A DNA stretch of 64,000 bases from an uncultured Desulfosarcina sp. (GTDB lineage Bacteria; Desulfobacterota; Desulfobacteria; Desulfobacterales; Desulfosarcinaceae): positions 448,001 through 512,000 of the forward strand of contig CAXXWQ010000002.1 in the NCBI GenBank assembly GCA_963674945.2, in the 5' to 3' direction. The first letter of the stretch is position 1. The number at the start of each line of letters is the position of its first letter. Below, piece after piece: positions 245-19,504 of the stretch. The position numbers and the translations under genes are program-made. The notes beneath the pieces were generated by a model. It saw only the letters and a program-made list of their open reading frames with translations, was not told the DNA's origin and searched no databases.

Positions 245-1345
245 ATGCACATCAAACTCGATCGATGGGCGATCCTTACAATCACGATGGTATTGATCGC
301 CCTTTTTTTCGGATTGCGTCCCCACGCCTGGTTTGTCGATAATGATGCCAGGTGGCTGCCAAACCATGATGGCCTCCAATTCATGGGCAACGGCATCGCA
401 TACGTTAGAGATTTGCGCCCGGATATGACAGAAAGCCATCCGGATGCGTTCACGATCGAATTGGTCGCGACGCCGGGAACTGTTCAAATCCGTGGCTTCA
501 GTCCGCTGCTGGTCCTTAGCGATGGTTCCGATGACCGGCAATTGGCCGTCTGGCAGTATTTGGGGTCACTCATTGTCATGAACGGCGACGATTACGACTA
601 TCGGCAACGACGGCCGCGCGTCGTTGCCCGCGATGTTTTTTCCGCCGGCCAGGTACGAATGGTCACGATCACGTCCTGTGATCGGGGAACCCGATTGTAT
701 ATGGATGGTGTGCTTGCGGCGGCCAAGGAAAGCTGGCGGTTGACCATTCCACGAAATTCTCAACCACTGCATCTGGTGCTGGGCAATTCCCTGTATGCCA
801 AGCATGGGTGGTATGGCCGCCTGCATGGCCTGGCCCTGTTCACCGAAGCCATTGGTGCCGAAGAGATCGAACATCGTTATGATCAATGGGCGGGTAGTAA
901 TGATTTCAGCCGGATACATGGATCAATGCCGCAGCCTGTCTATTCGTTCGGCAAGCTATCGGGCCAAACCATCGGTGACGAAACCGGAGGCGAACGGCGC
1001 CTCGAATTGCCCAGGCATCTGAAAGTCCTGAAACGATCTTTTCTGTCGGTACCAGGTCGAAAGGAAGCATGGAACCGCAACCTGTTTGGTGACATGCTGA
1101 TCAATGTGATCGGCTTTATCCCCCTGGGATTGGTATTCCGTCGTTTCCTGTCACGAACGTCCCGTATGGGCAATAGTACCATTTTCTGGATGGTCGTTCT
1201 CGCCTGTCTGATGCTCAGCCTGGCCATCGAAATCGTCCAGGCGTGGATCCCGGGCCGAACGTCGAGCCTAACGGACCTGGTGCTGAATACCACCGGGGGA
1301 ATGCTGGGCGCTTGGGTGGGGAAGCAGCCGGTGGATAGGCTCTAG
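245..1345 (+). CDS. Membrane protein with a LamG/ConA-like periplasmic domain and a C-terminal VanZ-like domain
   Basis: N-terminal TM helix; LamG-like segments (FTIEL, TRLYMDG, LVLGN, WYGRLHGLALF..A); VanZ signature DMLINVIGFIPLG...SLAIEIVQAWIPGRTSSLTDLVLNTTG. Confidence 0.8.
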   Translation: MHIKLDRWAILTITMVLIALFFGLRPHAWFVDNDARWLPNHDGLQFMGNGIAYVRDLRPDMTESHPDAFTIELVATPGTVQIRGFSPLLVLSDGSDDRQLAVWQYLGSLIVMNGDDYDYRQRRPRVVARDVFSAGQVRMVTITSCDRGTRLYMDGVLAAAKESWRLTIPRNSQPLHLVLGNSLYAKHGWYGRLHGLALFTEAIGAEEIEHRYDQWAGSNDFSRIHGSMPQPVYSFGKLSGQTIGDETGGERRLELPRHLKVLKRSFLSVPGRKEAWNRNLFGDMLINVIGFIPLGLVFRRFLSRTSRMGNSTIFWMVVLACLMLSLAIEIVQAWIPGRTSSLTDLVLNTTGGMLGAWVGKQPVDRL

Positions 1346-1553: not shown

Positions 1554-1600
1554 GTTGACAGCCGATAAAATACTGTGAAATGAAACGAGGTCATCCTTTT
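1554..1600 (+). promoter_or_regulatory. Conserved 47-bp upstream element with a sigma28-like -10 box (GCCGATAA), copy 1
   Basis: 36/47 ungapped identity to 8543-8589; GCCGATAA at 1561-1568. Confidence 0.6.
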
Positions 1601-1633
1601 GCCAACCAATACAAAGCGCCATGGGGGGAATAC

Positions 1634-2128
1634 ATGAAGCGATCAGTTTGGATACTACTCTTTTTGATTTGTGCGACTGTGGTGATGCCGGACGGGGCGA
1701 TGGCAATTGATTTCTCATGGAGTTGGGCGCCCAATGGGTCGACCTATACATCGGGACCGGATGGCGACATCGTTTACGATCTGTACATGCGGGACGACGA
1801 TGATGCCGATTATGCATACGACTATCCGTTGATGGCTGGAATCGAGGATTGCACTGGGGATGATGACCTGTACTCGTGCAGGGCTTCTTTGGATTATGAC
1901 TTTATGCCCGGAGTAAACTACTATTTCGTCGTTGTCGCCTATCTTTCGGAAGATCCCGCTTTGCGAAGCGCCTCTTCCAACGAAGTGCACTACTATATCG
2001 ATCCTGCCAATGAAGAACCGGTCATTGAAGAACCCGGCTTGCAGGATAGTGGTGCCGGAGGGGGCGGCGGATGTTTCGTTGATTCCAATATCATTGAATT
2101 TTTTTCCGGTTGTGATACGAATAAATAA
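1634..2128 (+). CDS. Secreted fibronectin type III-like protein with a C-terminal GGGGGCFV tail
   Basis: ATG 1634 after a G-rich RBS; signal peptide MKRSVWILLFLICATVVMPDGAMA; FN3-like W.W.PN...YDLY...PGVNYYFVVVAY...SASSNEV; acidic linker then GAGGGGGCFVDS. Confidence 0.75.
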   Translation: MKRSVWILLFLICATVVMPDGAMAIDFSWSWAPNGSTYTSGPDGDIVYDLYMRDDDDADYAYDYPLMAGIEDCTGDDDLYSCRASLDYDFMPGVNYYFVVVAYLSEDPALRSASSNEVHYYIDPANEEPVIEEPGLQDSGAGGGGGCFVDSNIIEFFSGCDTNK

Positions 2129-2219: not shown

Positions 2220-3536
2220 GTGACCATCGATCGGTACCGCATGCGCATTCAAGATACCGCTGACCGACGTGCTTTCTGCAGCTTTTCCCTGTGCTTGTGG
2301 CTTCTGTTTTGCCTCGGGACGGATGCCATCGCCGATTTTCATTTCACCCCACGCCTATCGGCCGGTGTCGCCTATACGGACAACGTTTTTTTGACTCCGG
2401 ATCGCGAAGAGCACGACATCATCACCTTCGTTTCTCCCGGTATCGCTCTGGAGTGGACGGGTCGAAACAGTGCTCTGGGCATTGACTATGCCCCGATTTA
2501 CAACAGCTACCTGCGGTTTCCGGAATATACCTATTGGGGCCACAGTGCGACGTTGGACGGGTGGACCGAAGTTGCCCGTGGCACCCGGCTGGAATTGACC
2601 AACACCGCTACCTATACCCAGGATCCGCCGGATACCGAGACCGATACCACGGTCCGGCAAGGCAGAGAACCGTATTTCACCAACACGGCCACCATCGGCG
2701 TGGTCAATCAGTTCGGTGCCGAAAACAGCATCGCATTGCATTACACCCACTACATTCTCGAAAACGAAGACATTACCATCGAAGACAGTTCCTATCATCG
2801 GCCGGAAATCCTGATCACCCACTGGTTTTCCCCCAACCGCTATGCCTTGGAAATGGAGGCGCTGTATACCGTCAGCAACTTCGATGTGTCTGCGGATTTC
2901 GATGATCTGGACGCCCGGATTCGATTTACCAAGCGTTTCAACAGCCACCTGGACGGGTATCTCGAATATGGTCATGTCTACCTCGACTATTACGACGACA
3001 CCGAGGAGGATTATCAGGTATACAGTCCACTGGCGGGTTTCATCTGGGATGAGCGGTCCAACACGCACTTTGGCGCCAGCTTCGGTTATTTTTATCGGGA
3101 CAACGAGTTCAGCGAAGACGACGACGGCATCGTCGGAACCATTGAGATGAGCTATGCCTATTCCAGAGAGAGCACTTTCTCGATGCTCGGAGACGTGGGG
3201 TATGACCGTGCCAATTTCGGTGCGGAAAACCTGGGATTCAATCCCTACTATTCGGTTTCGGGCTCCGTTGATCACCGGATCAACCGCCTGCTCGCGGGCA
3301 TTGTGACCGCCGGGTATCGACGGAACCTCTACATCGACGAAACCCCCGACAGGGAGGATGCCGTATGGTATGCCGGCGCCGGTCTGGCCTACCAGCCGCT
3401 GGCATGGCTGACGTTCAATCTGGATTATGAATACAGGCAGATCAACTCCAACGTCGACATCAACGATTATACGGAGAACCGGGTAACCTTTTCGTTTCGG
3501 TTGGCGCCGGGGCAGCCGGTGCGGTTTGGGAGATAG
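2220..3536 (+). CDS. Outer-membrane beta-barrel of the polysaccharide-export/PEP-CTERM-associated type
   Basis: Probable GTG 2220 (or ATG 2241); signal peptide ending AIA; FTPRLSAGVAYTDNVF...D.I..VSPGI at the N-terminus; alternating aromatic strands; ends ...SN.DINDYTENRVTFSFRL. Confidence 0.8.
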   Translation: MTIDRYRMRIQDTADRRAFCSFSLCLWLLFCLGTDAIADFHFTPRLSAGVAYTDNVFLTPDREEHDIITFVSPGIALEWTGRNSALGIDYAPIYNSYLRFPEYTYWGHSATLDGWTEVARGTRLELTNTATYTQDPPDTETDTTVRQGREPYFTNTATIGVVNQFGAENSIALHYTHYILENEDITIEDSSYHRPEILITHWFSPNRYALEMEALYTVSNFDVSADFDDLDARIRFTKRFNSHLDGYLEYGHVYLDYYDDTEEDYQVYSPLAGFIWDERSNTHFGASFGYFYRDNEFSEDDDGIVGTIEMSYAYSRESTFSMLGDVGYDRANFGAENLGFNPYYSVSGSVDHRINRLLAGIVTAGYRRNLYIDETPDREDAVWYAGAGLAYQPLAWLTFNLDYEYRQINSNVDINDYTENRVTFSFRLAPGQPVRFGR

Positions 3537-3846: not shown

Positions 3847-6804
3847 ATGAACATATATACAGGCCATGGCATGATAAGGTTTCTGCTCGTCTTGGTTTTG
3901 GTGACGCTGATGGGACCGGCGAGGGGCCTGGCGCTGGATGTCAACGGCATTGTCGACACTGACAGCCGCTGGACAACGGACGACAGTCCCATAAAGATCA
4001 CGGGCGATCTTCTGGTGGCCCAGGGGGCGACCCTGACCATCGATCCGGGTGTTCAGGTGGTGTTCATGACGCGTGCCGATACGGCCCGGGGATACAATCT
4101 CAGGGTCGAGGGGACACTGTTTGCCCGGGGCACCGCAGCAAATACCATCTCCTTTACCGCCCAGGACCCGTTGCTTCCCTGGGGCGCAATTCTCTTCGAG
4201 GATATCAGCGCGGATTGGGATGCCGACCAGGGGACCGGGAGCAGAATCTCCCATTGCGTCATCGAATACGGGGGCAATACCGCAGATTTCGGTATGATCG
4301 TTACCCGAAATGCCATGCCCCTGATACGTGACAACGCCATCCGTTTCAGCGCCGGCGCAGGCATTGCCGCCTTTGCCGACGACGGCGTGGTGACGGTCGG
4401 AGAGAATCTTCAGATCATCGACAATTGGATTTACGGCAACCCCATCGGTCTCGTCATGTTCGCGGAGGAAGGGGTGGTGACCGGTAACTACTTTCTGAGC
4501 AACGGATCGGCCATGGACGTCACGGCCCGCTCCAACGCTGTCGTCATACAAAACAACACCATTTCAGGCGCTTCAACCAACCTTCTCGGGTCGGGGATTC
4601 GTCTCGAACTTGCCGAACCGGCCAGCGGTCTTGCCGGCTACAATTGGGTGCAGACCGGAGGGCCCACTGTTTCTCTGGACTCGACCGACGGCAATCAAGC
4701 CTCGTTTGTCGCGCCGGATCCGGGAAGCGACGTTTATGTCCTGACCTTCGAGCTGACGGCAACGGGTGTCGATGGTTTGCGTGCCGCCGATACGGTGGCG
4801 GTGACCGTAACCGGAACGAATCTGCCGCCGGTGGCAAACGCCGGGTCCGATGCCAACGTTCTTCGCACCGCCGGAATGATGGTAACCCTGAGCGGGGTCG
4901 GTTCAACGGATCCCGACAATGGGATCGCCTCCCTTTTCTGGGAGCAAGAGTCCGGAACAACGGTCTCTTTGCAGGATACGGATACGATCGCACCCTATTT
5001 TTACATCCCTTACACGGTCGTTGCCGGAGAAGAGATGACCTTCCGGCTTACGGTGACCGACCAGGGCGGACTCGAATCGACGGACACGGTTACGCTTCGT
5101 TTTTACAGCGACAACATCTACCCTCGTGCCGGTGTCGGGGAGGAGATGGCCGCCGCAACGGCACAGACCGTCGAGCTGGATGGCACCGGATCCGTGGATC
5201 CGGACGGCGTGATCGCAACCTATCTTTGGGAGCAGACGGACGGGACGACGGTCACCCTGGAAAATGCCGACACGGCCACCGCCAGTTTCGAAGTGCCGGC
5301 GGTTGCGGACGGTGGTGAGGTCTTGACCTTTGCGCTGACCGTTACCGACGATGGCGGATTGACGGACACCGAGACGCTGACGGTCCGGATCAACCCCGTT
5401 GCGGTGGATGCCGGGGAAGACCGGACCGTTTCGGCCGGCGACGAGGTGATTCTCGACGGCAGCGGTTCCATCGATCCCAATGCCTCTGCCGACATCCAGA
5501 TCCAGCACAATACCATCGTGTCCGACGGTGACGGTGCCGGTTTGATGGCCGTTACCGGGGTCGAGGAGGCCCGGTATCAATTGTCATTTTCCGAAAACAA
5601 CCTCGAATTCGACGATGCACAAGGCTATGCGTTTTATCTGTACGATTGGGATGAATCGACCACAGAAATCAACATAACCCACAACTGGTGGGGAAGCGTT
5701 TCCATTCCTGCCATCGACACCTTGATTTACGATCAGGCCGATGATTTCCAATTGCCTTCGGTGGTGTACCGGCCTGTCGCCGCACAGTTGATCGCGGCAG
5801 CCGGATCAGACCTGGTTTATCCACCCCTGGCCAATGCGGGGCCGGATATGGAAACCACCATGGATGCGGCCGTGACCCTTGATGGCAGCCAATCCTACGA
5901 TCCCGACGGGATCGGCACGTATCGATGGGAACAGACAGAAGGGGAATCCGTGACAATTCGTACATCCAATCAGGCCGTCGCGACTTTCGTCGCGCCCTCC
6001 GGCGGCACCGACGGTCGGGAGCTTCGCTTCTCCCTCACCGTATCCACGGGCGGACCGTTCACCCATACCGATGAGGTCGTGGTTACCGTCGTGCCCGATG
6101 AAACCGTGCCTCTGGTCGAGGTGGGCGAAGGCTGCTTCATCGGTTCGACGATTGCCCCATCCGTCGAAGCGGGAAAGGGGTGCGTGATGATGATTGTCGC
6201 AACCTTGGCAATGGTTTCGTGTCTGGTTTTGGGGTCCCGAAAGAGAAGGCAAGGTTTTGCCGCACTGTTTGCGGTTTTGCTGGTTGTTTTCATTCCATCG
6301 TCACACGCCGGCTTTTTTGCCGTTGGCGGTGGCGGCGGTGGTGAAGCGGAGAGGTATAACATCACCATCGAAACCGGGGCCAAGGACATTACCGCCGGCT
6401 CCTTGGAGATGATGTTCGCATTCGGGATCCCGTTCATTCCCCACGGTGACAAGAATATTCCCGAAAATACCGTTGCGATGCCGTGCCCCAACGACCAGTG
6501 CATGTCGCTGGGAGAAGAGAGAAAAGGGACCGAAGTGGGGTTTTATGGAAAATTGGGGATCGAGATCGGATCCACCAACCTCTATTGTAACCTCCTTGGT
6601 GGTTTTACCGCATACACGGAAAGTGAACTGGTGCGATCAACGGGTTCCGGCACAACATTCGAAGAATCGTCCGATACGGTTTTAGAACCCCTCTATGGCG
6701 CCGGGTTGAGCTATTTTCCGGATTACTGGAAATGGCCCATCCTCCTGCAGGTGGACTGGGACATCACCCGGGGAGTTACGGGCACCATTGGTTGGTGTTG
6801 GTGA
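3847..6804 (+). CDS. Large secreted protein: beta-helix with PKD/K319L-like Ig repeats, internal GCFI-TM-RKRR signal, second signal peptide and C-terminal barrel-like domain
   Basis: GGAGG RBS; signal peptide; ITGDLLVAQGATLTIDPGV..F...L.VEGTL.A.GT beta-helix start; repeated P.ANAG.D...V.LDG..S.DPDG...Y.WEQT.G units; EGCFIG at 6127-6144; ends GVTGTIGWCW. Confidence 0.85.
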   Translation: MNIYTGHGMIRFLLVLVLVTLMGPARGLALDVNGIVDTDSRWTTDDSPIKITGDLLVAQGATLTIDPGVQVVFMTRADTARGYNLRVEGTLFARGTAANTISFTAQDPLLPWGAILFEDISADWDADQGTGSRISHCVIEYGGNTADFGMIVTRNAMPLIRDNAIRFSAGAGIAAFADDGVVTVGENLQIIDNWIYGNPIGLVMFAEEGVVTGNYFLSNGSAMDVTARSNAVVIQNNTISGASTNLLGSGIRLELAEPASGLAGYNWVQTGGPTVSLDSTDGNQASFVAPDPGSDVYVLTFELTATGVDGLRAADTVAVTVTGTNLPPVANAGSDANVLRTAGMMVTLSGVGSTDPDNGIASLFWEQESGTTVSLQDTDTIAPYFYIPYTVVAGEEMTFRLTVTDQGGLESTDTVTLRFYSDNIYPRAGVGEEMAAATAQTVELDGTGSVDPDGVIATYLWEQTDGTTVTLENADTATASFEVPAVADGGEVLTFALTVTDDGGLTDTETLTVRINPVAVDAGEDRTVSAGDEVILDGSGSIDPNASADIQIQHNTIVSDGDGAGLMAVTGVEEARYQLSFSENNLEFDDAQGYAFYLYDWDESTTEINITHNWWGSVSIPAIDTLIYDQADDFQLPSVVYRPVAAQLIAAAGSDLVYPPLANAGPDMETTMDAAVTLDGSQSYDPDGIGTYRWEQTEGESVTIRTSNQAVATFVAPSGGTDGRELRFSLTVSTGGPFTHTDEVVVTVVPDETVPLVEVGEGCFIGSTIAPSVEAGKGCVMMIVATLAMVSCLVLGSRKRRQGFAALFAVLLVVFIPSSHAGFFAVGGGGGGEAERYNITIETGAKDITAGSLEMMFAFGIPFIPHGDKNIPENTVAMPCPNDQCMSLGEERKGTEVGFYGKLGIEIGSTNLYCNLLGGFTAYTESELVRSTGSGTTFEESSDTVLEPLYGAGLSYFPDYWKWPILLQVDWDITRGVTGTIGWCW

Positions 6805-6815
6805 TTGATCGTGAT

Positions 6816-6893
6816 GAGCAAAGAGCGGAGAGCAACGAGTGATGAGGAAATAAGCTGATAGCTCATGGGTGATAGCTCATAGGACATGGATGA
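6816..6893 (+). repeat. Two consecutive heptamer tracts (GAGC/GAGT type, then TAGCTCA type)
   Basis: GAGCAAA GAGCGGA GAGCAAC GAGTGAT GAGGAAA, then AAGCTGA TAGCTCA TGGGTGA TAGCTCA TAGGACA TGGATGA. Confidence 0.85.
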
Positions 6894-6920
6894 TGATCGA
6901 AGGAAAAAATTGAATTATTG

Positions 6921-7288: not shown

Positions 7289-8107
7289 TTATCTTCTATT
7301 GTTAATTTTTTTTCGTGCGGTACCTGCCAGTCCGATCAAGCCGGTACCGAACAAGAGCAGGGTGGCCGGTTCGGGAACGGGGGCGGTGCCGCTTCCCATG
7401 AGGTTGTCATTGCCGCACCCCATCGTGAAGTGGGATGTGAAGACACCATCCCAGTTTTGTAGATTATCATCATTCAGGATAATGCTCAGGTCAAGGCCGG
7501 TTACCGTATAATGTTGATCGCCAAAGAATGTCTTATCGGCAGCGTATGAGTAAGCGCCATAGGCTATTGAACCGGAACCCAAAATATCTGTTCTCGAACC
7601 AGCATAAAATTGCCATGGATCAGACTCCGGAGAATTTAAGTCCTCTTTTACTCGTTCAAGTGTATCAGAACTACTAATTGAAAATACTTCATAATTGCCT
7701 GTTGCCCAATTGACATCAAAAACATAATCATATCCCATGGTAAGGTCGCTGCTATCAGCACCTGTTCCAAATTCTGCATCCCCGTCAACATCTATGAATA
7801 TATCACCGGAAGTATAACCAGGGTATCCGTTTACTCCATTTTGAAAATCAAATCCACCGACCATTGACAGGATAAACCCTTCGAGGAAAAAACCCTCCAG
7901 ATCCCAAACCTGGCTGGCAACCATTCCAGGTTCAACTTCGTTATCTTCTCCAATTGAAGTCCGTGAATCGGATTCACCGAAATATCCCCGGCTGTCCTCC
8001 CTTTGGTCGAATATTGTAATGTCGGCACCAAAATTAAGCGCCCAGGCCCCGCTGCACAATAGCAACACTAAAAATGGTGCAATCAACATCTTCATCCAAC
8101 GATTCAT
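7289..8107 (-). CDS. PEP-CTERM sorting-domain surface protein
   Basis: Signal peptide MNRWMKMLIAPFLVLLLCSGAWA; acidic body ending HFTMGCGND; C-terminal PVPEPATLLLFGTGLIGLAGTARKK. Confidence 0.95.
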   Translation of the reverse strand: MNRWMKMLIAPFLVLLLCSGAWALNFGADITIFDQREDSRGYFGESDSRTSIGEDNEVEPGMVASQVWDLEGFFLEGFILSMVGGFDFQNGVNGYPGYTSGDIFIDVDGDAEFGTGADSSDLTMGYDYVFDVNWATGNYEVFSISSSDTLERVKEDLNSPESDPWQFYAGSRTDILGSGSIAYGAYSYAADKTFFGDQHYTVTGLDLSIILNDDNLQNWDGVFTSHFTMGCGNDNLMGSGTAPVPEPATLLLFGTGLIGLAGTARKKINNRR

Positions 8108-8168
8108 GTTTTTTCCCTTTCTGCGAAACAATAAAACGCGATAGGTATATTATTGACGGTTATTGGGT

Positions 8169-8670: not shown

Positions 8671-9663
8671 ATGATGAGATTTTTTACGATTCGTATGTGG
8701 CTTTTTCTCCCAATTTTGTGCGCTGTCTCCTGGTTGTCAACGGAGGCCATCTTTGCCGAATCGGTGATCGTTGACCACAATCATACAGATATTACCGCGA
8801 TACCACAGTCGGCCATCGCACAGGCGAAACAGACACTTCACATCGCCTATGGCCACACCTCCCACGGAAGTCAGTTGACAACGGGCATGACCGGGTTGGT
8901 GAGCTTTGCCAATGGCGGTGGATTGGGTCTTTCCCTTCCGGACAACTTCTTTGCATGGGACAACGGCGGGACGGACGGTGCTTTAGACCTTCACGATTAC
9001 GCCATGGGTGGGGATGTGGGTTACTACCCCCAATGGGTAGACAACACGCGGGCCTATCTGGATGATCCGGAAAACGCGGATGTCAACGTGATCATCTGGT
9101 CATGGTGCGGACAGGTGGACGACAAGTACGCCGCCGGCACCCTGGATACCGAGTATCTGACACCCATGGCCCAGTTGGAAGCCGACTATCCCGATGTTAC
9201 CTTCGTATACATGACCGGGCATGTGGATATCGACGACGACGCAGACAACAAGGCCGCCAATCAGGTGATTCGGGACTTTTGCGAGAACAATGGCAAGGTG
9301 CTTTTCGATTTTGCCGATATCGAACACTACGATTCCGACGGCCAATATTTCGAATATGTCGATGACGATTGCAGTTATTACGATGGTCCCCGCGGTACCT
9401 ACCTGGGAAATTGGGCCGTTGCGTGGCAAGATGCCCACGTGGAAGGGCAGGACTGGTACGATTGCAGTTCCGCCCACAGTGAGCCGCTCAACGCGAACAG
9501 AAAAGCCTATGCCGCATGGTGGTTGTGGGCGAGGCTTGGCGGCTGGGATCCGGCGCCGGTTGTCGATGGCAACGATGATGACGATTCCCCTCCGGTTGCT
9601 TTTCAGGCTGACGATGGTGGCAGTGGCGGTTGTTTCATTCGTGCCGCCATCTTTGACAGGTAA
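8671..9663 (+). CDS. Secreted acidic protein (possible SGNH-like fold) with a C-terminal GGSGGCFI tail
   Basis: Signal peptide; motifs HIAYGHTSHGSQL, NVIIWSWCGQ, FVYMTGH, LFDFADIE, AHSEPLN, AAWWLWARL.GW; Asp/Pro linker then DDGGSGGCFIRAAIFDR. Confidence 0.75.
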   Translation: MMRFFTIRMWLFLPILCAVSWLSTEAIFAESVIVDHNHTDITAIPQSAIAQAKQTLHIAYGHTSHGSQLTTGMTGLVSFANGGGLGLSLPDNFFAWDNGGTDGALDLHDYAMGGDVGYYPQWVDNTRAYLDDPENADVNVIIWSWCGQVDDKYAAGTLDTEYLTPMAQLEADYPDVTFVYMTGHVDIDDDADNKAANQVIRDFCENNGKVLFDFADIEHYDSDGQYFEYVDDDCSYYDGPRGTYLGNWAVAWQDAHVEGQDWYDCSSAHSEPLNANRKAYAAWWLWARLGGWDPAPVVDGNDDDDSPPVAFQADDGGSGGCFIRAAIFDR

Positions 9664-9986: not shown

Positions 9987-10220
9987 ATGAAAATCAATGC
10001 CGCCGAATTCAGAATGAAATGTTTCAAAATATTGGATCAGGTGAATTCTACCCATCGGGAGGTGATTATCACGAAACGGGGTAAACCCATTGTAAAGATA
10101 GTACATGTAGAGCAGGATGATAAAAGGGACCCGATGTTGGGAGCGCTGTCAGGCACCGGAAGGACCCTTGAAGACCTTACGCTACCGATAGTCGAATCGG
10201 ATGCATGGGAATTGGATTGA
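9987..10220 (+). CDS. Phd/YefM-family antitoxin
   Basis: MKINAAEFRMKCFKILDQV...EVIITKRGKPIVKIV signature; overlaps the toxin start. Confidence 0.92.
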   Translation: MKINAAEFRMKCFKILDQVNSTHREVIITKRGKPIVKIVHVEQDDKRDPMLGALSGTGRTLEDLTLPIVESDAWELD

Positions 10221-10612
10221 TGATCTTGCTGGACACACATGTCTGGTGGTGGAGTCTTGCCGAACCGGAGAATCTTTCAGCGGATACAATGGCGGTGATT
10301 CGCACCACAAAAACAGACGAACGTTTCATCTCATCGATTTCGATTTGGGAATTTGCCATGATGTTGGCAAAAAACAGGATTGAGTTGAAAATTTCTCCAA
10401 CCAAATGGTTGTCGAAAGCCATCGATGCATCCGGAATTACAGTGATCGAATTGTCTCCGGAAATCGCTGTCGATTCATGTAATCTGCCTGGTGATTTTCA
10501 TAAAGATCCTGTTGATCGAATTATCGTCGCTACCGCCAGAATTCATAACCTCACATTGTTAACCAAGGATAAAAAGATATTGGACTATCCGCATGTAAAA
10601 TCTTTTTGGTGA
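10220..10612 (+). CDS. vapC: VapC-family PIN-domain toxin
   Basis: ATG 10220 overlaps the antitoxin TGA; MILLDTHVWWW, ISSISIWE, HKDPVDRIIVATA, LLTKD. Confidence 0.93.
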   Translation: MILLDTHVWWWSLAEPENLSADTMAVIRTTKTDERFISSISIWEFAMMLAKNRIELKISPTKWLSKAIDASGITVIELSPEIAVDSCNLPGDFHKDPVDRIIVATARIHNLTLLTKDKKILDYPHVKSFW

Positions 10613-11433: not shown

Positions 11434-14400
11434 CTATTTACATTTGTTATGATCTATTGTGTCAATTGTTTTCGATATATTTATGGGTGGGGTTATACCC
11501 AGTCCTACATTGATACCGAATTGTCCGCTCAACGGGTAATAGCTTATTCCCAAATAACGATTTAAGCCAAATGTAAAAGCAAGATTACCTATTGCATTAA
11601 AACCATTTAAATCGGAAATATTAAATACAAACTCTGTGCCACCACCAATCAAACTTGTAGAAACGCCTATATCAGTCTTAGTGCTAAACCAGTTACCATT
11701 TCGGTTATGAATTTGAGTAGAGTAATCAGTGAAAAGTATTGAACCTCCAACATTCGTACGACTATAGTGTATCGTACTATCTGGAACGAAGTTTTCAATC
11801 ATTTCTGGACCAAAAGCCTCTAATCCCATCGGATCAGTCCAATTAACTGGATTATTACCTACATACCCATAAACATTAATCCCCCCAACCAAACCAATGG
11901 GATCGGTCCGCATGTATCTTCCGGTTCGGGGATCATAATACCGATGGTAGTTATAATGAAGGCCGGTTTCACCATCATGGCACTGGCCCGGGAACCGGAA
12001 ATTATTAACAAAGCCGTTGGCCGTTATATCAACCTGGCCGAAGGGTCGGTAATCGCCTTGCCAGACGACATCGCCGAACTCATCGGTAATGATGATCGGG
12101 GTCCCAAGATGATCGTTGATGAAAAAATAGAGTTTGTCAACGGTCCGTTGGGCGGTGATGGCCTCCGGCAGGATTCCCGTGAGGGGGCCGAAGGATGCCA
12201 GAAGGATGGGTTCGGGTGAGAATACCGGCGGCGTGCCGTCGAACCGGACCGGAAACGGCGACAGGGTCATATCGGCAAGGAGAATGTCCAGATCCATCTC
12301 CACATTGGTGTTTTCGCCGGCCATGATGTTGACGGCCGGCGACCAGACCTGGCTGCCGTCGTGGTCCACCCGGAATTTGTAGGCGCCGTCGGGCACAAGG
12401 AAGTCGGCCATACCGGAAGAATCGGTGCGTTCCATCCGGCCGAGATAGGCGCCGGATTCTGAGAAGAGATAGACCGGGGCATCGAACAGGTCCCAGCCGC
12501 CGACGGTTACGTGGACTGCTGCCCGGCCGTGTTCGATGGAAATGATCGTATCGGTCTGATTGATCACTTCGGACCAGGTTTGTACGGATAGGCAGTCCGC
12601 CCTGAACGCATAGTCGGCCGGCGGAAGGTTGAAGGTTGCCTGGCCGTCTGCATCGGTGAAGGCGCTTCGACCCATGTAGGCGCCGGCGGCGGAGAACAGG
12701 TAGACCGGCACGTCCGCCAGGGGCGCGGCAACCGGGCCGAACTGTCCGTCGACGGTCACTGTTACCATCTGGTGGGTGATGGTGAGCAGATCGGACCGAA
12801 TGTCGGGGATGACATGGTCCGGGGTCCAGTACCGATAACCCAGATAATCGACACGGAACCGATAGCCGCCGTCGGCAAGATCGAAGGCGACCTGGCCGGA
12901 ATCATCGGTATGGGCCGAGAGCCCCAGATAGGCGCCGGCATCGTTGAACACATAAACCGGAACGTCGACCAGAGGCGCGCCGGTCTCCGTTTGGACGGTC
13001 AGGGCGAAGCTGCCGCCGCCTGTGGAAACGGCGATGGGCGTCGTCCCATGGGCCGCCACCGTTGCCGTGGCCCAGAATTGATTTCCCATGTGGTCGGCCC
13101 GGAACCGATAGGTCCCCTGGGGCAGGCGGAAGTTCACTTCTCCCCGGGCATCGGTCTCGCCGCTGATGTTCAGATAGGCATCGGTTATACCGAACACGTA
13201 GACACTGACATTTTCCAGGGGCTGGATTTCCTGCAGTACGGTGACGGCCGCGGTCCCCTCCTCGATGAGGATGTCCGCATCGGCCAGGGTAACGGGATCG
13301 GTCCAGTACTGCCGGCCCATGTAATCGGCCCGGACGGTATAGGCCTGGGCCGGCAGGTTGAACGAGGCCTGGCCGGCGGCGTCGGTGACGGCCGACATGC
13401 CCAGGTAGGCCCCATCGGGTGTGAACAGGTACACCGGTACGCTATCCCTGGCTTCCATATCACCGTCGTCGTTGCCGGCGACCGTGATGACGACATCTTC
13501 ATGGGCGATGGTCATCCCCACGGCATCGGTGGCCGGTACGGAAAAGGCGTCGGTCCAATACCGGTAGCCCAGATAATCGACACGAATCTGATACCCTCCA
13601 TCGGCCAGATGGAAATCGGCGGTACCGTCCCCGCCGGTGGCGGCGCTCTGGCCTAAATAAACGCCGTCATCCGAAAAGAGATAGCAGGAGATTCCGGCCA
13701 TGGGATTTCCTGGGGATTTTTCCATCGTGAAGGTGAGGTTGCCACCGCCGGTGGAGACGGTGACCGGATTGTCCACATGGGCTAACACAGGGGCTGTGCC
13801 GGAAAAATAGCGGCTGCCCAGATAGTCTGCCCTGAAGTTGTAGTTTCCCCGGGGCAAACGAAAGGATATTTCCCCCTGACTGTCGGTCTGGCCGGACAGC
13901 CCCAGGTAGGCACCCGCCTCGTTAAACGTGTGAACATTTACGCCGCCCAGGGGCAGGCCCTGTCCGGTGACCGAAACCGTTGCGATTCCTTCGTCGATCG
14001 TAACGGTTTCGTCGTTCTGGTTGAAGATCGCAGACCAGTATTGTCCACCGATAAAGTCGACCCGGACCTTGTACTCCCCGGCCGGCACCTGGAAGGTCGT
14101 TTGGCCCTGGTCATCGGTGAAGGCGTTGATGCCCAGATGGGAACCGGAGGCGGTGAACAGGTAGACGGGAACTTGCTCCGGAAGCCGTACATCGGCATTA
14201 CAATCCCGCAGGACCGTGATTCCCACATCCTGGTGATCGATGATCAGTTCGGATACGGTGTCGGTGGTCACCGCGATTTCCTCGGTCCAGAACTGATATC
14301 CCATGTAGTCTGCCCGGACCTTGTACATGCCTTCCGGCACAGTGTAGGAAACCCGGCCGGCGGGATCGGTTCGGCCGCTTGCTCCCAGGTAGGCGCCGGA

Positions 14401-17400
14401 TGAGGAAAACAGGTAGACATGAATCCCGTCCAGGGGGGTATGGTCCTGGGTCGTCAGGGTGACGGTCAAGGTCCCCCCGCCGGTGGCAACGGCGAAATCG
14501 TTGGCACCATCCGGTGACACGGTAAGGACGTCGGACATGAACCGGCCACCCAGTACGTCGGCTCGGAACCGGTACCCCTGTCCGGCGGGCAGGATGAACG
14601 AAACATTTCCGTTTTCGTCGGTGATCGCGAAGATGCCCAGGTAAGCGCCGGCCTCATTGAACAGGTAGACCCTGACCCCGGCCTTTGGTCCATCCGCCTG
14701 GGTGATCAGTACTTCGACGGTTTCCACATCGATGACGATGCCGGCGGATGTCGCTCCAGGAAGGGTGACGGCAGAGGACCAGAATCGGTCGCTCAGGTAG
14801 TCGGCCCGGAATGTGTAGCCGCCGGTCGAGAAATCACCGGGATTGAAAGCGGCCTCTCCTGTATCGTCCGTGACGGCAAACCGGCCGGTATAGGCGCCGC
14901 TTTCGGTAAAGGCATAGACGCGAATGCCGGACAGGGCCATGCCCTGTGATGTGGACACCGTGACGGTGAATTCGTCCGATACCGGAGTCGCTGCCACGGC
15001 CGCCAGGCGATGGTCGCCCAAATAAATATAATGGGCGATAAAATCCCCATCGATCGTGGATTCTCCGATGAGATGACCGAATTGATCGTAGTGAAACACC
15101 GTGGTGCCGTCGGCTGTGGTGGCCCGGGTTCGCTGGCCGAGGGAATTGTACATGTACTCGCCCAGGCTGCCGCCGGCGTCGGAGACCTGGATGAGGCGGT
15201 TGTTCCGGTTGTAGGCGTAGGTGATTCCATCTGTGGCGGTCATGTTGCCGGCATCGTCGAATGTGAAACCGGAGGGAAGGGCGCCGGTGATGGTTTGGAG
15301 CCGATGGGTTCCGGGATGGTATTGATAGGTTTCGGTCTGACCATCGACCGTCCGGGTGAGGCGGTTGCCCACACCGTCATAGGCATAGCCGATGGTGCCG
15401 TAGATCCCCGTGGCTTGGGTCAGACGATACAAATCGTCATATTGAAAGGACTGGAAACGGTCGGGGGCCTGGGTGTCGGTGATGGCGGTAATGTTGCCCA
15501 TTGGATCCAGGGTGTAGGACCGATCCATGAGGGACGGGGCGGTGACACCGGTGGTACGGTAGCCGTCGTCGAAGGTGTGGATGACGCGAATGCCGGAACC
15601 GTTGGTGTAATCCGCCACGGGTCCGAAGGGAAGATGTTCGATTTCCTCTGCCACGATCTGCGTGGTTTGATCCATGGTCGTGGTGATCCGAACCACCCGT
15701 CCGGCCCCATCCAGCTCATAGTCCACCTGCCGTCCGTCGGGATAGGTGATGCCGGTGAGCACATCGGCGGCATCGTATTCATAGGAGATGGTGTATATAC
15801 TTCCCGCCATGGTGCGCCGGTCCTGGATCAGATTGCCCGATGGATCATAGGAAAAGGAACAGCTGCCGCCACTGTCGCGAATGCCGGTCAGCCGGCCCTT
15901 TCCGTTTTCACCCGCATCGTACGTGTAGGTGACGTTTTCCTTCGGATCTGCATAGGCGATGTCCGTCAGTCGATACTCGTCGTCATAGGCGAAGTTGACG
16001 ATGATTCCGTTGCCGTCGGTTTTGGAAACCGGATTGCCGGCCTCGTCGAAGAGATAGGCGGTGGTGCCGGCATCGGGAGAAACGATCCTCACCGTGCGGC
16101 CCAGATCGTCGACCACGTATTGTGTGGCCACGTTTTCGGGGTCGGTCACCAGGACCAGGTTGCCCTGTTCGTCGTAATCATAGCCGGTGACCACCGATCC
16201 CGGTTGCACCATGGCGGTCATTCGATTCATCAGGTCATAGGCGTATGTGGTGATCTTGCCCGCGGGATCCGTGACCCGGCGGACATTGCCCGCTGCGTCA
16301 TAATCGTAGGCGAAGAAGGTATCGTCCGGGTTGATCGCCCGATACAGCTTTCCGGGGCGGCTCGGGTGCTGGTAATCGAACCGCTGCCGGAACGTGCGGG
16401 TGCCCGACGGAAGGAAGTAGCCGGTGTCGATGATGTTGCCCTGGCCGTCATAGCCCCGGCCGATCCGGTTGCCCAGGGCGTCGATGGTGGACGTCAAACG
16501 GCCGGTGGCCGGGTCGTATTCATGGGTCAGCGTCGCGCCGTTGGGCAAGGTAACCGTATCCAACATGCCGGCCGATGTGTAGGAAAAACCGGTTGTCGCG
16601 CCGTCCCATTGCCGTGTCATGGCCGTAACCCGCCCCCGACCATCATAACCATAGTCGACGCTGTTCAGGTTGGGATCGGTGATGCGACCGGGTCTGCCGG
16701 CGGCATCGTGCTCGCTGAAGGTCGTCGTGCCCGAAACCGGCCGGGTGACGCCGAGCAGATCACCGGTGATCGAATCATAGGTGCAAGTGGTGGTATCACC
16801 GGTGCCGGAGAGGGGACCATCCACACTTTTCAGCTGCCCTCGGGTATTGTAGGCAAATGTAGTGACCGATTCCACCGGGGCCACTGCTCCCGATGCATCT
16901 TGTGTGAATCCACCGACGATCAACCGATGGACCAGGGGCGTCGGATCTTCATTGGCAATATCGTCGCCGTCATCGTCGTAGTCCCAGGTTGTCATTTTGT
17001 TTCCACTTGCCAGAACGCTCTGCTCAATGCGGGTCAGCGGTTTGTTCAGCGTCGGATGCCAGATCGAAATAACCTCCTTTTCATCCCCCGTTCCCGCAGC
17101 CCGGACAGTCCTGCCGGCATTGCCCCGGTCGTCGAAGTCTGAAAACAGGTCGATCCTTCCGTTGGCATATTCCATCTCGATGACGTTCAAATGCTCATCG
17201 TATTCCCAACGGATTGGCTCTTCCACACAACCGGCGCATCCGGAATCTCCGGTGACACCGAAAATCCGCCTACGTCCCTTGATGGCAGTAAATTGATACG
17301 TTCTCGAGACCCCATAGGCATCGGTTACGACAGCGGCGTTGGCAATGGTATCGTAATCGATGGTAACGCCCCGGCCGTCCGTGGTGTCGTTACGATAACA

Positions 17401-19329
17401 GCGGTCCTGATCATCATAGACCCAGGTTGCCAGGAGATGACCCATTGTGTCGGTTTTTTTCGTCAGGTTATTGATAAACGGCGCCGTATCCGCATCGTCG
17501 TAGTCGTAGACAAAACCGGAACCGTCGGCAAACGTCGCCGTAGTGAGGTTTTTGTTCTCATCGTAGTCGTAGGCGACCTGGATGCCCCCGTCCAAGATGC
17601 CGGACAACAGTCGGATCGACGTGAGAAAACCATCCGTATAGGCAAACACCAGGGAACGGCCGCTGGCCTCATCGATGACGGTTTCGATCAACCCGGGTTC
17701 GGTTGTACCATAGACCATGGTCCGACGGTTTCCCATATGGTCGGTGATATACAGCAATTGGCGGGTTGTTGCATCGAAAGTATACGTGTTGCCGTTCTCG
17801 CGTTCCCAGATATAGGTGTCATCCCGGGCGATGAGATTGGTCCTCTCCTGGAACAATGGAAGTATGGTTCCGGTATTCGGATCCTCTTTGAAATAACGTC
17901 CAAAACCGGTATCATCCAGAATCAACAGATACTCGCTATCCACACCCGTCACCGATTGCAGCGTGATATTGTAGTTATGGGTCCAGCCGTATCCCATGGG
18001 GCTGACAACTTCGCTCCGGCTGTTGTAGAATCTTTTAAAGATCAGACCGCCGGCAAAGGGAGACGGTACGTCGAGATCCGCTTCTGATTCAACCAGATTA
18101 CCGGTATAGATAGAGACGGGATCACCTTTTTCGGCCACATTATTGCAATTTATCTTACCCTTGGGATCTCGTCCCAGATCCAGAGGGATGTATTCGCATC
18201 CATCCGCTGCATTGCCGTATCCCTGCGGGCAAGCATCCATACAGTCATTGATCCCGTCGCCGTCATAGTCCAGACCGTAGGCGCCGGGATCCTGGCAGCC
18301 GACGATAAACAATACAGACTTGATCGTTCTACTTCCATTGGTGGATACAGCCTTCAAACTCAATGAGTGAAAGCCGTCTTCCCAATAGCCGTACAAGGCT
18401 GGATCCAATTCTCTATAATTTTCGTTGTCCGTGTTGAAGCTAAAAGTGTAATCTGTTCCATTGATCGTTTTGGACGTCCTTTGTTTTCCATCGAGGTAAT
18501 ACGTAATCGTGCCTTCCGCACCGACTGGATTTTCCTTAAATGACACCGACCCTGTAAAATCAAATTTTCCGGATATTTTCTCATTGGGAGAAGGCGTGGA
18601 TATGGTAATTTCCGGTGTGTTGTCTACAATAAACGTTGCTGTCTTCTCACTTTTTGTTCCATTCTTGGCAACTGCCCTGACCGTTACCGTGTGCGGACCA
18701 TTGGTCATTCTTCCCGCATTGAGTTTTGTGGTCGGATTTGCCGTGTTATAGCTGAATGGAATTTCTGTGCCTTCGCAGTATTTGCTTAATCGCATCGAAC
18801 CGTCCAGATAAATATAAATCTCCCCCTCAGCACCCTCGGGGTTATCTTTGAAATTGACGAGCCCTGAGATATCGAACTCTCCTGCCACTTCTTCACCAGG
18901 AAATGGGGTGTTTACGTAAACATCCGGAGTGTTGTCGACATTGATCGAGACAGAATCGGTACTTGAATTGTCTTTGCAATCCGTTGCCCTTGCGACGAAT
19001 GTATGTGTTCCGTTCTGCATCCTGGCGGTATTTACCCCATAGGAACAAAATGCGCTGCCGTTTCCTTCATCAGAACACCAATGGGATCCGTCTCGATACC
19101 CAACTAATGTTCCATGACTATTATCATGACAGGCCGGTGGATCATCGGGGCTGCAAAACTCGTAGGTGGAAAAGGACGCCGCATTGCTGACGGTTATCAA
19201 TCCTTCGGTTGCAGACAAAGAAACTGAAGCGCTGGTGGCAAGGGCTATTTCTGAAACACCCCATATGACAGAAAAAGCGAGGATAAAATAAAATGGTTTT
19301 CTTTTTCTAATGTTGTTTTTACAGGTCAT
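11434..19329 (-). CDS. Rhs/YD-repeat polymorphic toxin-like protein: signal peptide, 3 Ig-like domains, Rhs core with an 11-repeat insertion, 128-aa C-terminal tip
   Basis: Probable ATG 19329 after GGAG; [10 protein letters not shown]...FKRFYNS...MGYGWTHNY core start; many YD repeats; NDHLGTP...YRPFG...NNFRFPGQ...[50 protein letters not shown] core end. Confidence 0.95.
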   Translation of the reverse strand: [2631 protein letters not shown]

Positions 19330-19504
19330 GTTTTTCTCCGATATTCCCCGGTGGAGGAGATAATTCATGCAAGAACGGATTTTCTGATGGAATCCAGTGG
19401 AGAATCGAATCGGAGGGAGAACATACCTGGTGTGGTGGAACTGGAACGCAATGCCTGGTAGTACTTAAAACGGATTTTACATATGATCTTTTTTATGGCT
19501 TTCC

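Follow-up and report, generated by a model that had tools for sequence, protein, structure and literature searches.

A beta-helix protein and a predicted outer-membrane barrel encoded in one frame, with a conserved internal signal peptide-like junction, in an uncultured Desulfosarcina

Does a single bacterial reading frame supply both a surface protein and an outer-membrane barrel? The question is raised by a gene in a 64,000-nucleotide stretch of DNA (hereafter the window) from an uncultured Desulfosarcina sp., a bacterium of the sulfate-reducer type (GenBank assembly GCA_963674945.2, contig CAXXWQ010000002.1, positions 448,001 to 512,000). One open reading frame (ORF) of 985 amino acids (aa), at 3847-6804 on the forward strand, carries in order a signal peptide, a beta-helix/PKD passenger, a Cys-Phe-Ile motif, a hydrophobic helix, the basic cluster RKRR, a second signal peptide, and a C-terminal domain of 164 aa whose last residue is Trp (stop codon at 6802-6804). 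The junction and the barrel, which together make up the final 228 codons, are the part under study here. A preliminary description made from the DNA letters had read this gene as a polyprotein, and all of the features that it named are present in one frame where it had placed them: E-G-C-F-I begins at 6127, RKRR lies at 6238-6249, the second hydrophobic stretch comprises aa 804-816, and SHA at 6301-6309 is followed by a Gly at 6310 that opens the 164-aa domain. We propose that the precursor probably passes through Sec in two rounds and is split by signal peptidase I, giving a predicted surface protein and a predicted outer-membrane barrel that likely act as a dedicated pair.

The junction is not an assembly error, and no stop codon or frameshift has been lost there, because contigs from two samples are identical across it. 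In one sample, which may be the source of the window, contigs of runs X1 and X2 span positions 5900-6900 with 0 differences, and an X3 contig from a second sample of the same study spans the entire junction (5945-6429), also with 0 differences. Nor is the arrangement due to chance, since the same junction is present in 37/37 other long homologs retrieved with the barrel query; the named homologs belong to Desulfobacterales and other Thermodesulfobacteriota. By comparison with relatives that carry the two parts as neighboring genes, the gene is best read as a natural fusion of a passenger gene with its neighboring barrel gene. Beyond the N-terminal signal peptide, only the two junction helices exceed a mean Kyte-Doolittle (KD) hydropathy of 1.6 in 19-residue windows, and a full-length model (predicted local distance difference test, pLDDT, 84) has helices at 778-796 and 800-814 and a C-terminal domain from residue 821. 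The four PKD domains of the passenger are K319L-like (Pfam). A fold search with the full-length model returned generic immunoglobulin/cadherin repeats only, and NCBIfam matches to M36 peptidases were far under the cut-off and confined to the common PKD repeats.

Modelled alone, the 164-aa domain forms eight strands (pLDDT 90), in keeping with the barrel that had been supposed from its alternating residues. The top Foldseek rows were OmpA (E 6e-4) and then Ail, OmpX, and OprF, and VIA-align comparison with membrane barrels gave Z scores of 12.3-11.1, among them TtoA (Z 12.3, root mean square deviation 5.0, 146 residues aligned), PagL (11.7, 2.8, 119), and OprF (11.2, 2.9, 120). The domain shares its fold with barrels of the OmpA/OmpX/PagL/TtoA type but is only 7-15% identical to them. 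Soluble eight-stranded barrels score close to the membrane ones in the same comparison (NHBA, Z 10.9), which weighs against a membrane assignment. Z scores of 9-11 for the barrels of NHBA, hemophilin, and TbpB, together with weak SlipAM matches of the upstream gene that lie below the cut-off, would suit a soluble barrel that serves as a secretion signal, that is, a Slam/type XI-like cargo exported by the upstream barrel. The strand faces and the terminal residue break this tie in favor of a membrane barrel. Over 87 distinct barrels, with strand bounds set by hand from the barrel model, the lipid-type face is 80% hydrophobic and 57% identical with no charged consensus residue, the opposite face, polar or Gly, is 29% hydrophobic and 81% identical, and the terminal aromatic residue noted at the outset is Trp in 87/87. 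Given this conserved polar face and variable, uncharged hydrophobic face, the order of the Foldseek rows, and the two helices that divide the domain from the passenger, we regard soluble cargo as very improbable and the domain as a predicted eight-stranded OmpA-like outer-membrane barrel. Its family is uncatalogued: no Pfam or NCBIfam family reached the cut-off for the barrel or for 28 distant stand-alone relatives, no sequence relative with a solved structure was found, the ESM Atlas gave unnamed clusters and one weak lead to an outer-membrane protein barrel, and a search of its own genome found no paralog.

The segment ahead of the barrel is also conserved. Of the distinct fused relatives, some of them near-copies, 56/56 keep the basic patch, the two helices, and a small-x-small site. 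Not counted in this set were the apparently frameshifted P0008 and P0009, four fragments from short contigs that begin within the junction, and P0047, whose sequence holds a 40-aa insert and which de-duplication merged with P0007. In every one of the 56, helix 1 reaches a KD value of at least 1.58 over 15 residues, 2-6 Lys/Arg lie between the helices, and the internal hydrophobic region (h-region) reaches at least 2.05 over 12 residues; the minimum of two basic residues is consistent with the double duty proposed for RKRR, as the tail of the first helix and the n-region of the second. At the internal site, position -3 is small in 56/56, position -1 is Ala in 53 and Gly in 3, and position -2 is taken by 12 different residues, with junction lengths of 55-78 aa. 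A home-made leave-one-out matrix (not SignalP), derived from the passengers' own N-terminal signal peptides (35/40 usable), ranked this site first in 29/40 proteins, the window protein among them, and within the top 5 in 38/40, and where barrels have a gene of their own, their ordinary N-terminal signal peptide ends at the corresponding position. With its basic n-region, hydrophobic h-region, and small residues at -3 and -1, the segment has the predicted features of an internal signal peptidase I substrate, and the signal-peptidase-like site of the preliminary description is thereby upheld as a prediction. The passenger P0048, a close relative, stops inside helix 1, as read from the protein sequence alone. 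The junctions of P0047, P0069/L051, and P0073 seem to have absorbed translated short DNA repeats with the frame and the cleavage motif retained, and P0073 gives a weak KRQAASG-type match.

In both the barrel and the full-length models, strand 1 begins at the predicted cut site, and, having no linker that would bridge the periplasm, an uncut barrel would have no way to the outer membrane. This bears on the explanation that the protein stays whole, or that the barrel exports the passenger in autotransporter fashion, for which the order of passenger and barrel in one frame speaks. Autotransporter barrels have 12 strands, and their passengers are joined to them without inner-membrane helices. The gene differs from this type V layout, as had been noted at first sight, in the inner-membrane-type helices between its parts (two, in 56/56 fused relatives). 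It also has eight strands, a conserved cleavage motif, and no autotransporter Pfam match, and we consider either variant extremely improbable. An 80-kDa cargo of several domains could not pass through an eight-stranded barrel of the OmpA type, which offers no channel for it, and the barrel is therefore probably not the passenger's exporter, a role that had earlier been suggested for it.

The search for fused and split homologs found both. In a survey of 401 genomes of the order, the barrel occurs in 28: it is fused in 11, has a separate nearby passenger gene in 13 (immediately upstream in 12, with one intervening gene in 1), and has no passenger in the flank taken in 4. The N-terminal part of the passenger occurs in 27/401 genomes, including 15/17 of those with a separate barrel gene, so that both are present in 26 genomes, the barrel only in 2 (G642, 53% complete, and G693, with a C-terminal part of the passenger upstream), the passenger only in 1 (G731), and neither in 372. 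The pairing holds with the genes apart in G045, G049, and G521. Three points count against a dedicated pair. Kin are not independent in this co-occurrence count; the barrel family occurs without a window-type passenger in other orders, 6/400 genomes of the phylum carrying it, with 0 fused to such a passenger and no passenger match when one was sought in the barrel carriers G439 and G097; and most of 147 distant barrel matches are stand-alone by length (160-215 aa). The unlinked passenger of G045 (L038 503-6646, G045:C306) is a protein of 2048 aa with about five beta-helix units, a CFI motif, a helix, and then ∼100 unrelated residues, and its barrel partner is encoded on another contig.

Near the passenger end, C-[FY]-[IV] is present in 18/18 split loci (some of them near-copies). 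After it, 13 of the passengers stop within 4-14 residues, 3 continue into a longer tail that is not hydrophobic, and 2 into a helix followed by a basic tail. The states found range from split without a helix, through split with a helix and basic tail (L048, L053) and fused with a relic Met at the usual barrel start position (L050, L054, L065), to compact fused. That helix 1 is exclusive to fused forms was ruled out by L048, L053, and the unlinked G045 passenger. In a 48-row barrel tree the fused state needs four changes, at least three of them forced by well-supported branches, and a single fused clade is rejected (approximately unbiased test, p-AU 0.000165); three entries labelled solo in this tree have a passenger upstream, and the test of fusion is unaffected. 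A smaller tree is compatible with a single origin of the fused state (p-AU 0.068). Repeated fusion best fits the relic starts, though the unrooted tree leaves room for repeated splitting.

The relic starts also bear on the explanation that translation of the barrel begins mainly at an internal start codon, the fusion being a lost stop codon of little consequence. In L050 and L054 an ATG remains at -25/-29 codons, together with a ribosome-binding site of -7.2 kcal/mol, L065 has an ATG at -24, and in the window a Shine-Dalgarno-like stretch (-8.6) precedes an ATG at -40. However, the window ATG is not where such starts usually lie but at the beginning of helix 1, and its score is matched by 11% of 46 control codons. 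Although an in-frame ATG is present 17-44 codons ahead of the barrel in 27/28 separate-gene loci, 9/20 fused loci have none, so an internal start is not a general answer, and the full-length precursor would still be produced and would still require processing. We judge this explanation improbable.

The passenger's own fate turns on the Cys-Phe-Ile motif. By eye, this resembles the CFI-box of the NCBIfam models NF041763 (14 aa) and NF041770 (69 aa, CFI-box-CTERM), which describe exported proteins that end in a Gly/Ser/acidic linker followed by Cys-Phe-Ile, but the window motif is internal, and the window protein and its relatives fall below both models. Several results tell against a sorting tag of the known kind. 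The window protein is absent from the 17 genome matches to NF041763 (cut-off 15.9 bits) at E up to 10; 0/40 family members, and neither of two split passengers, scored a match to that model; NF041770 (69 residues, 40 bits) has no match in the genome; and no named Cys-tag model of the MYXO-CTERM/JDVT-CTERM class is among the NCBIfam matches of the 40 members. The genome encodes three CPBP proteases, none of which reaches a known-sortase cut-off (Mrt_core 40.9/100 bits, MrtJ 49.8/75). A helix and basic cluster follow the Cys in 56/56 fused forms versus 2/18 split loci, and 16/18 split passengers are without the membrane helix that the MYXO-CTERM model would need; the helix is therefore not a fixed part of the tag, and the lipidation and sorting step is weak. 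For the CTERM-type anchor first proposed, the invariant Cys speaks in favor and the missing model matches speak against, the helix and basic patch being constant in fused forms and mostly absent from split loci.

Elsewhere in the same genome NF041763 is passed at 8 places, and ∼15 other exported-looking proteins (hand-picked from 24 rows) end in a similar motif, only 2 of them with a helix, which indicates that the tag mostly occurs without one. A type II secretion cluster is present, with GspD, GspC, and GspN over cut-off. The barrel as a general receptor for CFI-tagged proteins is not favored: G015, G018, and G023, all single contigs and 96-100% complete, pass NF041763 without a barrel-profile match, so CFI proteins in general do not need the barrel. 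A disulfide from the CFI Cys to a barrel loop Cys was rejected as a general feature, several barrels being without such a Cys. The term "CFI-box" was found in no paper of the literature searched, whose scope left out most subscription papers, and the accessible part of the preprint by Haft (10.1101/2023.06.07.544157) makes no mention of CFI. Two further exported proteins of the window, encoded at 1580-2128 (+) and 8671-9663 (+), have a Gly-rich CFI/CFV motif at their end and no membrane helix; the smaller of them likewise lies upstream of BBP2 in L017 and L018. In L071 (3337-5594, G000:C4:1758336-1760593) a CPBP protease gene directly follows a gene for a 537-aa protein with a weak NF041770 match (E 0.001, below cut-off), making the protease a candidate CFI processing enzyme.

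From the predicted topology, the N-terminal signal peptide would export the passenger, helix 1 would halt transfer with RKRR remaining in the cytoplasm, and helix 2 would restart export and be cut at SHA/G, freeing the barrel for the beta-barrel assembly machinery (BAM) by way of its terminal Trp. We hold this double threading and internal cut to be likely. Polyproteins cut at internal signal peptides include the flavivirus and bunyavirus glycoprotein precursors and the Bradyrhizobium cytochrome b-c1 precursor. These share with the window protein a stop-transfer helix, a short basic loop, and an internal signal peptide cut by signal peptidase; the difference is that the downstream product here is a predicted bacterial outer-membrane barrel. 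Searches of the same literature on bacterial internal-signal polyproteins and fbcH found nothing relevant, and the "internal signal" of PMC13067283 is, in the text available, a BAM signal, unlike the internal signal peptide here.

For the passenger left on the hairpin, a MYXO-CTERM-like route, with lipidation at the invariant Cys, clipping, and carriage to the surface by type II secretion, is a tentative suggestion by analogy. The barrel would then partner or dock the passenger as TraB does TraA, and to act as its dedicated partner is the most likely role for the barrel, one that we hold to be reasonably probable. The published MYXO-CTERM model has the Cys lipidated, a CPBP protease make the cut, and type II secretion complete the route (PMC11980579), and TraA and TraB of M. 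xanthus are present 1:1 in foci (PMC12045341, preprint). Like the window pair, TraA and TraB are a Cys-tagged surface protein and a partner barrel from neighboring genes; they differ in being two genes and in the OmpA domain of TraB, and the comparison is one of layout, not of sequence. A broader view, that Desulfobacterota repeatedly evolved virus-style envelope polyproteins, with CFI sorting independent of the helix and the small barrel itself receiving or displaying the tagged protein at the surface, seems to us rather unlikely; if true, the fused, relic-start, and split versions would be a natural series on the anchoring of CFI proteins.

The closest precedent in kind is MXAN_5598 of M. 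xanthus, an adhesin with an internal MYXO-CTERM, a barrel, and an OmpA domain, for which gene fusion and processing have been proposed (Guo, Haft and Wall 2025, PMC11980579) and which is listed among vesicle proteins (PMC4158809). The sections of PMC11980579 available to us hold no test of the processing and do not mention an internal signal peptide for MXAN_5598. Both genes join an adhesin-like region, an internal Cys-bearing tag, and an outer-membrane barrel. The MXAN_5598 tag is a MYXO-CTERM with a known protease, and its OmpA domain is wall-binding, whereas the window gene has a CFI-like tag, no OmpA domain, a conserved internal site across its family, a barrel of another, uncatalogued eight-stranded family, and split and fused states that can be traced across the order. 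The kind is thus known in outline from MXAN_5598, and the new elements are the barrel family, its nearly strict pairing with the passenger, the conservation of the internal site, and the series from split through relic-start to compact fused genes.

The surroundings of the gene (Table 1) point to a further alternative. A BBP2 gene lies immediately upstream in 7/7 main-clade loci examined, and PEP-CTERM, PrsK-like, and exopolysaccharide genes are close by in several loci, a context that suggests a biofilm- or exopolysaccharide-linked surface role. The same context keeps alive the explanation that the barrel is cut off while the hairpin holds the passenger on the inner membrane for periplasmic work, for example on exopolysaccharide en route to the upstream BBP2 barrel. 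Export (OPX), BBP2, and sugar-nucleotide genes near the fused gene in L016, the frequent action of beta-helices on polysaccharides, and the CPBP proteases that fall short of the sortase cut-offs all suit it. However, the split passengers that keep the Cys motif without any helix (16/18) show that an inner-membrane helix is not their common trait, and one pair-type lineage adjoins a TolC/HlyD cluster instead of BBP2. We rate a periplasmic passenger as unlikely and prefer the surface pair.

Table 1. Features of the fused gene and its conserved upstream neighbor (window coordinates)
Feature	Coordinates	Strand	Basis
BBP2-family large outer-membrane barrel, conserved upstream neighbor, start uncertain	2244..3536	+	PF10082 E 2.5e-17
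Whole ORF, predicted two-product precursor	3847..6804	+	Full length kept in homologs; ribosome-binding site ahead of 3847
N-terminal Sec signal peptide, predicted cut after GLA (aa 29)	3847..3933	+	Sequence; mature start aligns in homologs
Right-handed beta-helix, first part	3934..4611	+	PF13229 E 7.5e-9 at aa 130-239; structure model
Three PKD/Ig-like (immunoglobulin-like) domains, bounds approximate	4612..5481	+	PF22352 (4 stretches in total); structure model
Short-strand region, likely beta-helix resuming after PKD insert	5482..5781	+	Inferred from model strands and matches to G045 repeat units
Fourth PKD domain, bounds approximate	5809..6096	+	PF22352; structure model
Cys-Phe-Ile, CFI-box-like putative sorting motif	6133..6141	+	C763 and F764 invariant in 40/40 aligned rows; no hidden Markov model match
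Membrane helix 1, predicted stop-transfer (out to in)	6178..6234 (aa 778-796)	+	KD 2.35 over 19 residues
RKRR, predicted cytoplasmic loop and n-region of second signal peptide	6238..6249	+	At least 2 Lys/Arg in 56/56 fused relatives
Internal signal peptide h-/c-region, predicted cut after SHA	6256..6309	+	-1/-3 residues; matrix rank; aligns with N-terminal signal peptides of stand-alone barrels
Predicted eight-stranded outer-membrane beta-barrel, uncatalogued family, C-terminal Trp	6310..6804	+	pLDDT 90; fold searches; face pattern

Other genes of the window and of related loci were also recorded. A PEP-CTERM protein (TIGR02595 over cut-off) is encoded at 7289-8131 (-), convergent with the fused gene. 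An exported protein of 2644 aa at 11434-19368 (-) is a possible polymorphic toxin: by eye it has Rhs/YD-like repeats, with a long insert of repeats ahead of where the core ends, and its C-terminal tip is short. A VanZ-family protein with a laminin-G-like domain lies at 245-1345 (+), and a small protein that is PIN-like by eye at 10205-10612 (+). The pair-type lineage mentioned above (L015, L029, L031, L060, L062, L064, L066) has a TolC-like gene after the barrel gene, and in L015 (10545-17419) the barrel gene is followed by TolC, by two adaptors of the HlyD type, of which one has GAF, and by an M50 peptidase-HlyD fusion.

If the precursor is cut as predicted, it would be a clear case of a bacterial outer-membrane barrel released from the middle of a precursor by an internal signal peptide. 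The idea of a processed adhesin-barrel precursor has been proposed for one myxobacterial gene, with no test found in the literature searched. Such genes are labelled "PKD domain protein" in annotation, which hides the second product. The family links an uncatalogued barrel to one passenger and offers an entry point to CFI-like tags.

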